From positions 19,800-83,799 of the forward strand of contig CAVRIE010000009.1 of NCBI GenBank assembly GCA_963721165.1: a stretch of 64,000 bases of DNA. Reading direction: 5' to 3'. Below the pieces are notes generated by a model. That model did no database searches and was not told where the DNA came from. It saw only the letters and a program-made list of their open reading frames with translations. The position numbers were made by a program, and so were the translations under genes. This document shows positions 10,402 through 64,000 of the stretch, one piece after another; positions within the stretch are counted from its first letter, which is position 1; the number at the start of each line of letters is the position of its first letter. The DNA comes from an uncultured Actinomycetota bacterium (GTDB lineage Bacteria > Actinomycetota > Actinomycetes > Propionibacteriales > Nocardioidaceae).

Positions 10402-10434
10402 GCGGTGGTTGGTTTCGACAGGCTCAACCACCGC
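10402..10434. repeat. REP-like palindromic element (GGTTTCGACAGGCTCAACCA type)
   Basis: gcggtggttg-gtttcgacaggct-caaccaccgc; related copy at 63905-63928. Confidence 0.7.
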
Positions 10435-20528: not shown

Positions 20529-21766
20529 ATGGAGTTCGCGTACGACGCCCGCACCGAGGAGCTCCGCGAGCAGCTGCTCGCGTTCATGGACGAGCACATC
20601 TACCCGAACGAGGCGCTCTTCCACGAGCAGCTCGACGCGCTCGAGAACAAGTGGGACTGGACCTCCGCGCCGGTGATGCAGGAGATCCGGGCCGAGGGCA
20701 AGAAGCAGGGGCTCTGGAACCTCTTCCTCCCCGGCGAGCACGGCGCCGGCCTCACGAACCTGCAGTACGCCCCGCTCGCCGAGATCACCGGCCGCTCCGG
20801 CCACCTCGCGCCCGCCGCCCTCAACTGCGCCGCCCCGGACACCGGCAACATGGAGGTGCTCGCGCAGTTCGGCAGCGAGGAGCAGAAGGAGCGCTGGCTG
20901 TCGCCGCTGCTCGACGGCACGATCCGCTCGGCGTTCGCGATGACCGAGCCGGACGTGGCCTCCTCCGACGCGACGAACATCAGCACCACGATCGAGCGCG
21001 ACCTTCGACGGCTGGGACCAACGGCGGATATGTCCTCAACGGCCGCAAGTGGTGGATCACCGGGGCGATGGCTCCCGCCTGCGAGATCTTCATCGTGATG
21101 GGCAAGACCGACTCATCAGCCGACAGGCACCGGCAGCAGTCGATGATCCTGGTCCCGCGCGACGCCCCCGGCCTCGTCGTGAAGCGCGGCATGGAGGTCT
21201 TCGGGTACGACGACCACGAGCACGGCGGCCACGCGGAGCTCGAGTTCAACGACGTCCGCGTCCCCGCCTCGAACCTGATCGGCGAGGAGGGCACCGGGTT
21301 CGCCATCGCGCAGGCCCGCCTCGGCCCCGGCCGGATCCACCACTGCATGCGCGCGATCGGTGTCGCCGAGCGGGCGATCGAGCTGATGTGCAAGCGGTCG
21401 GTCGAACGGGTCGCGTTCGGCAAGCCTCTTGCGAGCCAGGGCGTCGTGCGCGAGTGGATCGCGGAGTCGCGGGTGAAGATCGAGCAGCTGCGCCTGCTCG
21501 TGCTCAAGACCGCCTGGCTGATGGACACCGTCGGCAACAAGGGCGCGCACACCGAGATCCAGGCGATCAAGATCGCCACCCCCGAGACCGTCCAGTGGAT
21601 CCTCGACAAGGCGATCCAGGTGCACGGCGGCGGCGGCCTGTCCCAGGACTTCCCGCTGGCCCAGCAGTTCGCCGGCATCCGCACGCTCCGCTTCGCCGAC
21701 GGCCCGGACGAGGTCCACAAGATGTCCCTGGCCCGCAGGGAGATCAAGAAGCAGGTGGGGCTGTGA
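20529..21766 (+). CDS. Acyl-CoA dehydrogenase (ACAD10/11-like, LvaC-like); frameshift near 21002
   Basis: [74 protein letters not shown]. Confidence 0.9.
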
Positions 21767-22975
21767 GCTCGCCTGCCGCGAGGACGTTCGCCGCGACCTC
21801 GCGGAGCGGGTCGAGAAGCTGCTCTCGTCGTGCCCGCCTGCCTCCACGGACCGGCTGGAGTTCCTCCGCGCCCGCTTCGACGCGGGGCTCGCGTGGGTGC
21901 ACTTCCCCGAAGGGCTCGGCGGGCTCGGGCTCGCGCGTGGCTTCCAGCAGTACGTCGAGCAGCTGCTCGCCGAGGCCGGGGCGCCGGACAACGAGCCGCG
22001 CAAGATCGGGATCGGCCTCGGCATGGCCGCACCCACGATCCTGGCCTTCGGCACCGAGGAGCAGAAGCAGCAGTTCCTCCGCCCGTTGTGGACCGGCGAG
22101 GAGGTGTGGTGCCAGCTGTTCAGCGAGCCCGGCGCCGGGATCCGACCTCGCCGCGCTCGCGACGCGGGCGGTCCGTCACGGCGACGGGCCCGACGCGACC
22201 TGGGTCGTGAACGGGCAGAAGGTCTGGACGTCGAGCGCCCACAAGGCACAGCGGGCGATCCTCGTGGCGCGCACCGACCCGGATGCGCCCAAGCACAAGG
22301 GCATGACGTACTTCCTCGCCGACATGACCGACCCCGGCGTCGACGTACGACCGTTGCGCCAGCTCACCGGCGAGGCGGAGTTCAACGAGGTCTTCCTCTC
22401 CGACGTACGCATCCCCGACGCCCACCGCCTCGGCGAGGTAGGCGACGGCTGGAAGGTCGCGAACGCCACGCTGATGAACGAGCGTGTCGCGATCGGCGGG
22501 CACGCCGCACCGCGCGAGAGCGGGATGATCGGCCGAGGTCGCGGAGACGTGGCGTTCACGCCCGGAGCTGCGCACGCCCGGGATGCATGACCGGCTGATG
22601 TCCGGCTGGGTCGAGTCGGAGGTCTTCCGGCTGACCGGCGCGCGCCTGCGGCAGAAGCTCGCGGTCGGGGCGCCGGGCCCCGAGGGCTCCGCGATGAAGC
22701 TGACCTTCGCCCGGCTCGCCCAGGAGCTCAGCGGGCTCGAGGTCGAGCTGCTCGGCGAGGACGGCCTGCGTTACGGCGACTGGACGATGACCCGGCCCGA
22801 GCAGGTCGACTTCACCGGTCGCGACGCCGGCTACCGGTACCTCCGTGCCAAGGGCAACTCCATCGAGGGCGGCACCTCGGAGATCCTGCGCAACATCGTC
22901 GCGGAGCGGGTCCTCGGCCTGCCGACCGAGCCGCGCGTCGACAAGGACATCCCGTGGAAGGAGATCCCGCGATGA
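21763..22975 (+). CDS. Acyl-CoA dehydrogenase; frameshifts near 21775, 22140, 22545
   Basis: [19 protein letters not shown] + [45 protein letters not shown]. Confidence 0.85.
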
Positions 22976-24225
22976 GCTCGGACCTCAACCTGCTCTACAC
23001 CGACGTCGAGGACGACCTGCGCTCGTCGGTGCGGGACCTGCTCTCGTCGCGTTGCCCTGCTGACGCGGTGATCGCGATGTACGACGGCGACCGCTCGCTC
23101 GTCGCGCCCCTGTGGCGGTCGCTGGCCGTCGAGCTCGGGCTGGCGGGGCTGCTCGTGCCGGAGTCCTTCGGCGGTGCCGGGGCTTCTGCTCGGGAGGCGG
23201 CGGTCGTGCTCGAGGAGCTCGGCCGGTTCGCCGCGCCGGTGCCGTTCCTGACCAGCTCGGTCGTCGCCACCGCGGTGCTCGGCGGTGGGTCGCCTGCCGG
23301 TTCCGTGCACGTGCACGGTTTTGACGGCGGAGCGGCCGGATCGCGCGTCGATTCCGGGCAGGTGCACGATTCTGGCGAGGGAGCGGCCGGATCGCGCGTC
23401 GATCCCGTGCATGTGCACGATTCTGGCGAGCTGGGTGCCTCCTTGCTCGCGGAGTTGGCGGCGGGGGAGCGTACGGCGGCCCTGGCGGTGCCGCTGGCGG
23501 CGAGCCCCTGGTCCTTCGAACCCACTGTCACCGCGTCAGGCGATGCGCTGACCGGCCGGGTGACCTCGGTGGCGGGTGCGCTGGAGGCGGATGTGCTGCT
23601 GGTGCCGGTCGCCGTGGACGGGGGCGGCTCGGCCGGGGTCGAGGTGCGCGCGGTCGACGCTGCGGACGCCGAGATCACGCCGGTGACCTCCCTCGACATG
23701 ACGCGCCAGGTCGCCGACGTGTCGTTCGACGGCGCGTCGTCGCGGGTCGTCGTACCCGCAGACTCCGGCGCAGCCGCGGTGCGGAACGCCCTCCAGGTGG
23801 GAGCCGCGCTGATGGCGTCCGAACAGGTCGGTGTCGCGCAGTGGTGTCTCGACACGACGGTGGCGTACCTCAAGGAGCGGCGCCAGTTCGGCCGCGTCGT
23901 GGGCGGCTTCCAGTCGTTGAAGCACCGCCTCGCGGACCTGTACACGCTGGTCGAGCAGGCTCGTGCCGCAGCGCGCTACGCCGCAGCCACGGTCGCGGAG
24001 GGCGACCCGGACCAGGAGGTCGCGGCTTCGGTGGCCCAGGCGTACTGCTCCGACGTCGCCGTGAAGGCGGCCGAGGAGTGCGTGCAGCTGCACGGCGGGA
24101 TCGGCATGACCTGGGAGCACCCGGCGCACCTGTACCTCAAGCGCGCCAAGGCGGACCAGATCGCCTTCGGCACGCCGGGGGCGCACAGGGCCCACCTCGG
24201 CGAGCTCGTCGACCTGCCCGCCTGA
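22972..24225 (+). CDS. Acyl-CoA dehydrogenase with about 50-aa repeat-derived insertion
   Basis: LEELGR, SLDMTR, ERRQFGRVVGGFQSLKHRLAD, VQLHGGIGMTWEH. Confidence 0.9.
   Translation: MSSDLNLLYTDVEDDLRSSVRDLLSSRCPADAVIAMYDGDRSLVAPLWRSLAVELGLAGLLVPESFGGAGASAREAAVVLEELGRFAAPVPFLTSSVVATAVLGGGSPAGSVHVHGFDGGAAGSRVDSGQVHDSGEGAAGSRVDPVHVHDSGELGASLLAELAAGERTAALAVPLAASPWSFEPTVTASGDALTGRVTSVAGALEADVLLVPVAVDGGGSAGVEVRAVDAADAEITPVTSLDMTRQVADVSFDGASSRVVVPADSGAAAVRNALQVGAALMASEQVGVAQWCLDTTVAYLKERRQFGRVVGGFQSLKHRLADLYTLVEQARAAARYAAATVAEGDPDQEVAASVAQAYCSDVAVKAAEECVQLHGGIGMTWEHPAHLYLKRAKADQIAFGTPGAHRAHLGELVDLPA
23303..23430 (+). repeat. In-frame copy of the 51-bp GTGCACGATTC repeat family
   Basis: Palindrome ccgtgcac|gtgcacgg (23303-23318); units start at 23311, 23362, 23413; homologous to 56246-56413. 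Confidence 0.85.
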
Positions 24226-55062: not shown

Positions 55063-55143
55063 GCAAGAATCGTGCATGTGCGAGGTTCTTACGGCCGGAC
55101 GGCCGCTGGCGCCGCAAGGATCGTGCACCTGCACGATCCTTGC
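55063..55143. repeat. 51-bp repeat family, left cluster (two minus-strand units + palindrome)
   Basis: gcaagaatcgtgca at 55063, gcaaggatcgtgca-cc-tgcacgatccttgc at 55114-55143. Confidence 0.88.
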
Positions 55144-55184
55144 CGCCCGACTCGCCTGAACCGGCACGCGCCCAGGGGGTCGGG

Positions 55185-55204
55185 CCTGTGGATGACGAGA
55201 TGCG
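55185..55204 (+). promoter_or_regulatory. Motif cctgtggatgacgagatgcg upstream of DUF559 gene 2
   Basis: 18/20 identical to 38601-38620. Confidence 0.65.
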
Positions 55205-55234: not shown

Positions 55235-56189
55235 ATGACCACGTTGAAGGCCTCGTCCGTCGTCCTCGTCACCACGCCTCGAGACTCGCCGACCGTTCAC
55301 ACGCGCCGACGCGCTGGCGGCAGGGATCCCGGCACGAGACCTTCGCGGCTCGAAGTTCCGGCGGATCTTCAACGGCGTCTACATCGACGCGCGCGTGCCC
55401 GACCATCCGCTGATTCGCGCCGAAGCGGCGCTGCTCGTGCATCCCCCGACCGCGTTCGCCAGCCACGTCACGGCTGCGCGGGTGCACGGACTGCCTGTGC
55501 CCACCCACCACGCAGAGCATGTGACGGTGGTGTCAGCCGCCGACCGGAGCAAGCGCGCCGGGATCAAGTGCCACGTCGCCGGCACTGACGACGTCGTCGA
55601 GATCAGCGGTGTCCGTGTCTCCGGACCGCATCGGATGTTCGTCGAGCTCGCGCCCATGTTGTCGTTGGTCGACCTCGTCGTGGTCGGTGATGCTCTGGTG
55701 CGGCTCGGGAAGACCACACCGGCGGCTCTCGCGGCGGCGTGCGAGCGGAGCGACGCGCGGCATGCGACAGAGGCACTTCGCGCGGCCCGCTACGTCCGGA
55801 AGGAGGTCGACTCCCCGATGGAGACCCGGCTGCGCATGCTGATCGTGCTCGCCGGCCTGCCCGAGCCAGAGGTCAACCACAAGATCCGCGACGAGCACGG
55901 ACGGGTGACCCGACGCTTCGACCTGAGCTATCCCAGCGTCCGGCTGATCGTGGAGTACGACGGCCGCCAGCACGTCGAGATCCAGCAGAACTGGACGTCG
56001 GACCTCGAGCGCCGTGAGGAGTTCGACGACTCGGGCTGGCGGATTCTCGTCGTGACGAGCGACGGCATCTACAAGGACCCCGCCAAGACCGTTGCGCGCG
56101 TGCACCGGGCGCTTCGCAGTCAGGGGTGGCGCGGCCTGCCGACACGAACCTCCGACGCCTGGCGCCCCCACTTCCGCGGCCGGAGCTGA
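55235..56189 (+). CDS. DUF559 (Vsr-like) nuclease-domain protein; frameshift near 55280
   Basis: PFTRADALAAG...FRRIFNGVY; DSPMETRLR; RFDLSY...IVEYDGRQH...DLERRE...GWRILVVT. Confidence 0.85.
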
Positions 56190-56236
56190 CCCGCGCTCGG
56201 TCGAGCCGCGGAAGGCGCGGGGCGCCGGGGCGAAAC

Positions 56237-56413
56237 ATCGTGCACGTGCACGATTCTTGCGCCGCGAGCGACCGGATCGGCGTCGAACCTTCGCAGGTGC
56301 ACGATTCTTGCGCGGCGAGCGACCGGATCGGCGTCGAACCTTCGCAGGTGCACGATTCTTGCGCGGCGAGCGACCGGGTCGGCGTCAAACCTTCGCACGT
56401 GCACGATTCTTGC
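56237..56413 (+). repeat. 51-bp repeat family, right cluster: 18-bp palindrome + 3 full units + 1 partial
   Basis: atcgtgcac|gtgcacgat (56237-56254); units start at 56246, 56297, 56348, 56399. Confidence 0.95.
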
Positions 56414-56462
56414 CGCCGGGTGCGGGCCGCCGGGCGCATGCACCCGGCCAGGCCGCGCGGGG

Positions 56463-63278: not shown

Positions 63279-64000
63279 ATGACCGTCGCCGAGACCCCGA
63301 CCGGAACCCCGCCCTCCCCGCCGACCACCGACACCGGGAGCCCTCGCCGCGGAGGAAGGTGGATCGAGCACTGGGAGCCCGAGGACCAGGCGTTCTGGGA
63401 CGGCGGAGGCCAGAAGGTCGCCCGGCGCAACCTCGTGTGGTCGATCCTGGCCGAGCACATCGGGTTCTCCGTCTGGATGCTGTGGAGCGTCAGCGTGGTG
63501 TACCTGGTGCAGGCCGGCTTCGACTTCACCGTCGACCAGCTGTTCTGGCTGGCCGCGATCCCGAGCCTGGTGGGGGCGACGATGCGCTTCCCCTACACGT
63601 TCGCGGTGGCCCGCTTCGGCGGCCGCAACTGGACCGTGGTGAGCGCGTCGCTGCTGCTCGTGCCCTGCGCGTTGCTGGTGGTGTGCGTGTCGAACCCCGC
63701 GACGCCGTACTGGATGTTCGTGCTCGCGGCGGTCACCGCCGGCCTCGGTGGCGGCAACTTCGCCTCGAGCATGGCGAACATCTCCTACTTCTACCCGGAC
63801 GCCAAGAAGGGCTGGGCCCTCGGCCTGAACGCCGCCGGCGGCAACATCGGCGTGAGCACGGTGCAGTTCATCACCCCGATCATCGTGGGCGTGAGCGTCG
63901 TCGGGGTCTCGACAAGCTCGACCACCGGTCCGGGCTCGACCGCCGGTGGGCCGAACCTCGAGAACGTCGCGCTCGTGTGGGCGCCGCTCGCCGTCGTGGC
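63279..64000 (+). CDS. narK: NarK/NasA-family nitrate/nitrite MFS transporter, truncated by window edge
   Basis: WEPEDQAFW, ARRNL..S..AEHIGFSVW, RFPYTF, FGGR, GGGNFASSMANISYFYP..KKGWALGLNAAGGNIG. Confidence 0.93.
   Translation, partial: MTVAETPTGTPPSPPTTDTGSPRRGGRWIEHWEPEDQAFWDGGGQKVARRNLVWSILAEHIGFSVWMLWSVSVVYLVQAGFDFTVDQLFWLAAIPSLVGATMRFPYTFAVARFGGRNWTVVSASLLLVPCALLVVCVSNPATPYWMFVLAAVTAGLGGGNFASSMANISYFYPDAKKGWALGLNAAGGNIGVSTVQFITPIIVGVSVVGVSTSSTTGPGSTAGGPNLENVALVWAPLAVV
63905..63928 (+). repeat. REP-like element GGTCTCGACAAGCTCGACCACCGG, in-frame inside narK
   Basis: Encodes VSTSSTTG; same family as 10402-10434. Confidence 0.7.

Follow-up and report, generated by a model that had tools for sequence, protein, structure and literature searches.

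An in-frame 51-bp palindromic repeat in an acyl-CoA dehydrogenase subunit gene of a soil actinobacterium, probably derived from a repeat family that flanks a DUF559 nuclease gene

Introduction

Rickettsia palindromic elements (RPEs) are inserted in frame into metabolic genes, where they add a peptide segment that the fold of the host protein is considered to accommodate, and small non-autonomous repeats of the miniature inverted-repeat transposable element (MITE) kind, such as BOX, ERIC and Correia-type repeats, occasionally form in-frame fusions with host open reading frames (ORFs) (PMC10969869). Here we describe a 51-bp palindromic repeat array within an acyl-CoA dehydrogenase (ACAD) subunit gene of an uncultured member of the Nocardioidaceae (Actinomycetota), located in a 64,000-nucleotide stretch of contig CAVRIE010000009.1 that was analysed as a whole and is called the window below. 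The event is of a known kind, as in Rickettsia, and involves a different repeat family, which is tied to a DUF559 nuclease gene 33 kb away. We consider it likely that a genome-specific palindromic repeat, of the repetitive extragenic palindromic (REP) or MITE kind, was copied in frame into the ACAD gene. In-frame colonisation by palindromic repeats, best known from Rickettsia, would thereby be extended to a free-living, high-G+C soil actinobacterium.

The likeness to RPEs is one of process and not of descent: in both cases a dispersed palindromic repeat lies in frame in a metabolic gene and adds a fold-compatible segment. The phylum and the repeat family are different, and RPEs are found mostly in ORFs, whereas only 1 of ~22 copies is in a gene here. 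In addition, the present repeat forms a phased 51-bp array whose copy number changes in the manner of a variable number tandem repeat (VNTR), and it has a candidate partner gene (DUF559). With MITEs it shares small size, a non-autonomous character and the in-frame fusion with a host ORF. Its ends are palindromic and a target-site duplication is only tentative; neither a parent insertion sequence nor a transposase with ends like these was seen here.

Another close comparison is with the REP/REPIN-RAYT systems (REPtrons; REP doublets forming hairpins, REPINs, and REP-associated tyrosine transposases, RAYTs). Both consist of short dispersed intergenic palindromes, often between convergent genes, and in both one gene is framed by inverted repeat copies (here 55063-55144 on the − strand and 56236-56415 on the + strand) and the repeat type covaries with that gene between genomes. 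The framed gene here, however, encodes an AbiEi-like and Vsr-like DUF559 protein and not a Y1 (IS200/IS605-type) transposase; a Pfam search of this protein found no Y1 transposase domain, the defining feature of RAYTs. The copies also number in the tens and not the hundreds, and are organised in 51-bp phased arrays. Finally, Actinobacteria also have the mycobacterial interspersed repetitive units (MIRU-VNTR), which are dispersed as tandem units of ~50-80 bp, often multiples of three, and vary in copy number between strains, and the present repeat, compared with them by description only, is similar in its dispersed tandem units and copy-number polymorphism. MIRUs are located between operon genes, are not known to be built around a perfect palindrome, and have no known associated nuclease gene.

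A repeat array in the coding sequence of an ACAD subunit

The features of the ACAD locus, in window positions, are as follows.

22972-24225, + strand: host ACAD gene acad3, coding for 417 aa (P0001), the third of three adjacent ACAD genes (ORF list, Pfam, structural matches).
23296-23442, + strand: inserted segment, residues A109-S157, 49 codons in place of 1 (protein and codon alignments, G+C content at third codon positions, model confidence).
23301-23430, + strand: 51-bp tandem array, 2.5 units (Tandem Repeats Finder, colinear alignment to the 56236-56420 array).
23305-23316, no strand assigned: first palindrome core, GTGCAC-GTGCAC (GTGCACGTGCAC) (sequence, type-1 full-core scan).
23362-23412, + strand: unit A1, 51 bp, beginning with GTGCACGATTCT, absent in the related allele L001 and bounded by 18-nt direct repeats GTGCACGATTCTGGCGAG (alignment of the window with L001).
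23407-23418, no strand assigned: last palindrome core, GTGCAT-GTGCAC (GTGCATGTGCAC) (sequence, type-1 full-core scan).

An earlier note on this DNA had claimed that a 51-bp repeat was inserted in frame into an ACAD and added about 50 residues, and the analysis bears this out. Tandem Repeats Finder reported a period of 51 bp at 23301-23430, with 2.5 copies, 87% matches and a score of 197, and both palindromes are present. The ORF at 22972-24225 (+) is translated through the array without a stop and contains the peptide that the note had quoted, GSVHVHGFDGGAAGSRVDSGQVHDSGEGAAGSRVDPVHVHDSGE; SPAGSVHVHGFDGG is a part of the predicted peptide that spans the insert loop. An alignment to orthologues, proposed in the same note, defined the insertion as residues A109-S157, with 49 codons replacing one. 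The net gain in the loop is thus 48 codons, and the intact protein has 417 aa compared with 367-368 aa in the nearest insert-free orthologues.

At third codon positions, the insert has a G+C content of 69%, compared with 92% for the remainder of the host gene (p = 3e-6), which fits a recent non-coding origin of the insert. No stop codon occurs in any of its frames, as expected at 70% G+C.

The insert belongs to a dispersed, mostly intergenic repeat family

Arrays of the same period lie on both sides of the DUF559 gene, where the following features were annotated.

55063-55144, − strand: left array, two palindromes spaced at 51 bp, upstream of the DUF559 gene and in opposite orientation to the right array (12-mer and family scans).
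55395-56189, + strand: AbiEi-like/DUF559 nuclease gene (Vsr-like PD-(D/E)XK) (Pfam, orthologues, alignment to genome G004).
56236-56415, + strand: right array, 3.5 units of 51 bp, the closest genomic relative of the ACAD insert (Tandem Repeats Finder, BLAST).

We took a census of the family by core scans, nhmmer and BLAST over the whole genome (G000), a draft of 4.36 Mb with 70% G+C in 18 contigs. This genome-wide count, also called for by the earlier note, gave ~22 loci with 39 half-sites. The building block of the family is a palindrome (consensus caAGAATCGTGCAC-GTGCACGATTCTTg), one arm of which is often degenerate, and it recurs every 51 bp, as pairs or as arrays of up to four; the core consensus at this spacing is AAGAATCGTGCAC-GTGCACGATTCTT. 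All loci except the ACAD copy are intergenic, mostly just beyond gene ends, and the 12 copies that were sampled in relatives are intergenic too. A second candidate for an in-gene copy, C5:336374-336500, was rejected because the probable start codon, at 336315, is downstream of it. A degenerate core pattern, CGTNCAYRTGNACG, was rejected as a census tool, as half of its 18 matches were in unrelated coding sequence.

When the DUF559-side array was compared with the whole genome by BLAST, the best non-self match was the ACAD insert (81% identity over 125 bp, E 5e-24), in agreement with the earlier claim that the insert and the arrays 33 kb away form one family. Tandem Repeats Finder placed the right array at 56242-56418, with a period of 51 bp and 3.5 copies, and the ACAD insert is colinear with the 56236-56420 array; the alignment covers 2.5 units, and in each unit the register shifts by one base twice. 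Exact 12-mers are common to the insert and ~20 intergenic loci. The 12-mer GTGCACGATTCT, with one mismatch allowed, has 8 occurrences in the window, where shuffles predict 0.29, and all 8 coincide with the three arrays; exact copies would be expected by chance ~0.2 times per genome, as estimated from base composition. From these sequence comparisons (the colinear match, the exact 12-mers and the identical period), there is no reasonable doubt that the ACAD segment is a member of the family that flanks the DUF559 gene.

A local origin of the segment, by slippage in a low-complexity loop, with its likeness to the intergenic repeats being coincidental or reflecting copying in the reverse direction, has in its favour that the loop is hypervariable and contains unrelated simple repeats (PVEPS, GGDVS) in some orthologues. 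However, neither the 125-bp colinear match to an intergenic array nor the 12-mers shared with the intergenic loci would be expected from such an origin, the third-position composition of the insert resembles that of non-coding DNA, and the family is overwhelmingly intergenic. We therefore regard a local origin as very improbable.

Folding of the 206-nt DUF559-side array as RNA gave z = -1.75 relative to shuffles, leaving a role for RNA structure unsupported. Outside the window, a composite array was observed at C9:96580-97020, with a period of ~150 bp and a unit composed of a GGACAC-ATGTCC palindrome and a type-1 half-site, suggesting that several core variants coexist in one genome.

Empty sites in the closest relatives and a shorter array in a second assembly

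The closest orthologues of the host gene, in genomes G004 (loci L002/L006), G006 (L005) and G015 (L007) and in the metagenome protein P0003, have a short, empty loop of the same length as in the outgroups. Outside the loop, these proteins are 86-90% identical to the host protein. To the right of the insert, the window allele retains the GAG CTG of the empty alleles and lacks the ..AAADLL junction of alleles that carry a second palindrome type (type 2, described below), which argues that the insert entered a previously empty allele.

A second insert-bearing allele was found in L001, a farmland metagenome contig from an independent assembly. Its protein is 96% identical to that of the window, and it has the same junctions and the same insert minus exactly one 51-bp unit. 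The missing piece is bounded by the 18-nt direct repeats, as expected for slippage, and the change by a whole unit keeps the frame. The argument of the earlier note that the period itself preserves the frame (51 = 3 x 17) is thus matched by the length difference between these alleles, and the ACAD array behaves like a coding VNTR. The note had also held that the same segment in orthologues from repeat-free species would speak against an insertion; no orthologue from another lineage carries the segment, which is present only in the near-identical L001 lineage.

L001 also bears on the possibility of an assembly artefact, either a repeat-induced misjoin or a collapsed or expanded array. Such an artefact would be favoured by the draft state of the genome, which is in 18 contigs and seems to have single-base errors. 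Yet L001, assembled independently and from a different sample, shows the insert with the same junctions, the frame stays open, and orthologues can be aligned on either side of the insert, so that an artefact is scarcely tenable as an explanation of the insert.

The insert differs by ~19% from the closest copy of the family. Such a divergence would roughly fit an insertion later than the split from G004/G006 (dS, synonymous divergence, ~0.5) and earlier than that from L001 (dS 0.12).

The same loop is occupied in other species

Among the 120 best orthologues, this loop is extended by additional residues in at least 56, and ~35-40 of these carry the peptide AV(P/S)VH(V/M)(D/N)GNG in one to three copies, which is encoded by the type-2 palindrome GTTCCCGTCCAY-RTGGACGGGAAC. 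Type 2 is also spaced at 51 bp and is found in the same loop in many congeneric genomes and metagenome orthologues. The cores of types 1 and 2 differ by a palindrome-preserving pair of changes (GTGCAC-GTGCAC versus GTCCAC-GTGGAC) and share the 51-bp phase. Type 2 is dispersed in G014 (36 matches), G003 (31), G006 (22) and other genomes, and not in G000.

Occupancy of the loop is patchy on the gene tree. At least 6 changes are needed to explain presence and absence, in four well-supported sister pairs one member is occupied and the other is not, and a single clade of insert-bearing genes was rejected by the approximately unbiased (AU) test (p = 2e-9). Parsimony with types distinguished gave 9 changes when the loop of G009 was scored as type 1; the presence/absence minimum of 6 is independent of that label. 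The short loop of G009 (L010) was rejected as a type-1 remnant, its right junction, SAAAKLL, matching type-2 alleles.

Several orthologues have unrelated repeats at this position. The loops of P0063, P0067, P0117 and P0077 contain simple repeats (PVEPS in P0063/P0067, GGDVS in P0117) and a Gly/Ser-rich tract of 51 residues. Together with the patchy occupancy, these indicate that the loop is a permissive, hypervariable position that was entered at least twice, by type 1 here and by type 2 elsewhere. In congeners the loop is a recurrent landing or expansion site, and its occupation here is no isolated accident.

The widespread occupancy raises the alternative that the repeat is an old occupant of the loop with turnover: a single ancestral entry would have been inherited, precisely lost in several lineages and, in the present genome, overwritten with type 1 by gene conversion. 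The number of loop-extended and type-2 orthologues agrees with this, as do the common phase and the paired core changes of the two types, and the deep branches of the tree are unresolved, so that one early gain and ~6 losses would be possible. The evidence on the other side is that the nearest relatives are empty, with the loop length of the outgroups, that the right junction of the window allele is of the empty-allele and not of the type-2 form, and that both the AU test and the four sister pairs disagree with a single insert-bearing clade. Deletion would also have had to restore the ancestral length exactly and repeatedly. We consider this alternative rather unlikely for the insert, for which recent copying into an empty allele is preferred.

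Host protein and effect of the insert

In the host protein, Pfam identified Acyl-CoA_dh_N (PF02771) at residues 11-108 and Acyl-CoA_dh_1 (PF00441) at residues 265-410, both above the cut-offs. The ACAD middle-domain model had no match in this protein, and the same is true of other beta-type subunits. The best solved relatives by sequence are Tcur3481 (6wy8) and ChsE5 (4x28_D), with an identity of only ~26%. Foldseek searches with the host model gave a TM (template modelling) score of 0.80 to 6wy8 and 4x28 and a probability of 1.00 to many ACADs. These best matches by sequence and fold, together with an adjacent partner ACAD gene whose stop and start overlap with those of the host gene, suggest a subunit resembling the heteromeric alpha2beta2 steroid-type ACADs (ChsE4-ChsE5, Tcur3481-Tcur3483). 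In contrast to the host protein, the solved structures have no comparable loop insertion, and the operon here differs in that it also has two SDRs (short-chain dehydrogenases/reductases), an APH-type kinase and a third ACAD. The operon is conserved, and the ACAD-ACAD-ACAD synteny is conserved in G004.

When the insert was mapped onto an AlphaFold model, as the earlier note had proposed (mean pLDDT, predicted local distance difference test, 75), residues 106-149 formed a low-confidence coil (pLDDT < 50) between the N-terminal-domain helices 94-104 and 150-163, and the remainder of the model kept the ACAD fold. The model suggests that the insert is probably a disordered surface loop of 48 residues that is tolerated by the fold. 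The claim that the repeat can remodel proteins is thus upheld to the extent of a probably disordered and tolerated addition predicted by the model. For the enzymology of these proteins, it would follow that this loop of a heteromeric ACAD subunit tolerates from ~10 to 55 extra residues.

The ratio of non-synonymous to synonymous divergence (dN/dS) of the host gene is 0.17 relative to L001 (dS 0.12) and 0.14-0.18 relative to the empty-site orthologues (dS 0.47-0.50), indicating that the gene is still under purifying selection. Inside the insert, the window and L001 differ by 3 non-synonymous and 2 synonymous changes, by which the added loop looks near neutral.

The neighbouring ACAD genes raise the question of relaxed selection, i.e., that the operon is decaying and the insert is tolerated since the gene no longer matters. 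There is one frame change in acad1 at ~21002 (21002-21027, 17 extra bases) and there are two single extra bases in acad2 (22135 and 22533), and the insert-bearing ACAD3 orthologues of G014, G021 and G003 have frame changes as well. On the other hand, the dN/dS of 0.17 covers the time since the split from L001, which itself bears the insert, and ACAD3 itself reads as an intact gene in this genome as well as in L001 and most relatives that carry an insert. Moreover, acad2 is also frameshifted in the insert-free G015. A similar single-base problem in the DUF559 gene, the N-terminus of which has one extra base at ~55265 relative to G004, points to an assembly artefact. Both acad1 and acad2 are still ~94% identical to their G004 orthologues, and five neighbouring genes are intact. 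The frame changes in acad1, acad2 and the DUF559 gene are probably assembly errors, and decay of the operon is an unlikely explanation for the insert.

DUF559 genes are framed by palindromes of matching type

The protein encoded between the two arrays scored 27.3 bits against Pfam DUF559 (cut-off 20.6) at residues 180-240, and its match to MTES_1575 was below the cut-off of that model. DUF559 has been grouped with Vsr (PMC3424549). The conserved frame of the gene begins at ~55257, and an ATG at 55235 is one base out of frame.

Palindromes ~51 bp apart flank every DUF559 orthologue that we found in the genus, to its left and to its right, and they fall into five types according to lineage. These loci (L046-L054, L058 and L059) are in G004, G011, G010 (two), G003, G005 (two inspected), G014, G006, G012 and G013. 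The arrangement of a single gene between inverted repeat copies recurs at 10 congeneric loci. A given type is dispersed only where the matching DUF559 cassette is present, apart from a few single matches elsewhere: type 3 occurs only in G011 (14 matches) and type 5 only in G005 (13 matches), except for single matches in G012 and G010. The orientation of the cassette relative to its gpmA/MDMPI neighbours is inverted between G000/G004/G013 and G003/G014/G006/G005. No transposase was seen beside the repeat copies that were inspected, and no systematic search for an autonomous element was made.

A separate observation concerns the region upstream of the conserved N-terminal coding region, where every DUF559 orthologue (L045-L059) has a motif cCTGTGGA(T/C)(A/G/C)A, located at ~55180-55195 in the window. 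It resembles a reverse DnaA box (TGTGGATAA).

Mobility of intergenic copies and origin of the insert

Three intergenic copies of G000 (C1:20.1 kb, C5:440.3 kb and C6:414.3 kb) are missing from the corresponding spacers of G004, and two of the three also from those of G006/G013. One example is the spacer between convergent genes at C6:414196-414417 (compared with L064, L065 and L066), where G000 has type 1 and G006 has an array of three type-2 palindromes; in G004 and G013 this spacer is empty, with a length of ~50 bp. Another example is C5:440153-440431, where comparison with L062 and L063 revealed a 185-bp insertion carrying a type-1 element, flanked by GGGACGTC and CGGACGTC; G004 has a single GGGACGTC. 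These imperfect direct repeats are a possible target-site duplication of 7-8 bp. The comparisons of orthologous sequences suggest present or recent mobility of the palindromes around DUF559 genes. The earlier note had seen direct evidence of mobility in the ACAD copy; mobility gains support from the three absent intergenic copies, through evidence that is comparative and not direct.

The following course of events would account for these data. A copy of the repeat would have entered the ACAD coding sequence after the split from G004/G006 and before the split from L001, in a recipient allele with a short, empty loop. Later, slippage or unequal exchange involving the 18-nt direct repeats would have altered the length of the array in steps of one whole unit of 51 bp. 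The most likely agent of copying would be the AbiEi-like/DUF559 nuclease, which may nick or cut at the palindromes, after which repair would copy the unit into new sites. The insertion would have survived because the added length is a multiple of three, because no stop codon is present in any frame, and because it is located in a surface loop between two N-terminal-domain helices, where a disordered addition is tolerated.

Several observations weigh against this account. A hidden Markov model (HMM) built from family members other than the ACAD copies scored the insert at only E 0.047, and the similarity at the level of units is therefore moderate, the units being moderately diverged. The search for a clear target-site duplication at the insert, a further check proposed in the earlier note, yielded only one imperfect pair of direct repeats, GGGTCGCCT and GGGTGCCTCC. 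Another subtype fills the same loop in many congeners, which makes old occupancy with turnover possible for the loop overall. The frame changes in acad1, acad2 and the DUF559 gene would, if real, mean that the operon or the nuclease might be dead. Finally, our literature search revealed no DUF559 protein of this type for which transposition or nuclease activity had been demonstrated; the same search found no paper that links DUF559 to such repeats.

An extension of copying by the nuclease is that the loop is actively targeted, with the DUF559-nuclease/palindrome system copying its cognate palindromes into a few preferred sites in a homing-like or repair-templated manner. We regard this as possible but doubtful. 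With targeting, nuclease-matched subtypes might, as a similarly tentative proposal, settle time and again in this one coding loop and in the same spacers between genes, e.g., that at C6:414.2 kb. If so, an undescribed system of nuclease and repeat in Actinobacteria would have in the ACAD locus a natural reporter of its specificity and activity. For the study of the repeat system, the locus offers a roughly dated event, clean junctions and loop length as a simple read-out.

Additional repeats

A different palindrome, GCGGTGGTTGGTTTCGACAGGCTCAACCACCGC, was also noted, with sequences read at window positions 10402-10434, 63905-63928 and 21002-21027. The stretch in narK, TCTCGACAAGCTCGACCACCGG, looks related to this palindrome, and the relationship of the stretch in acad1 is doubtful. 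Among the ACAD orthologues, the metagenome protein P0051 has a tandem duplication of ~42 residues in the C-terminal ACAD domain (alignment A1, columns 326-367), in which LASEQYGVAQWCL...KHRLAD occurs twice.

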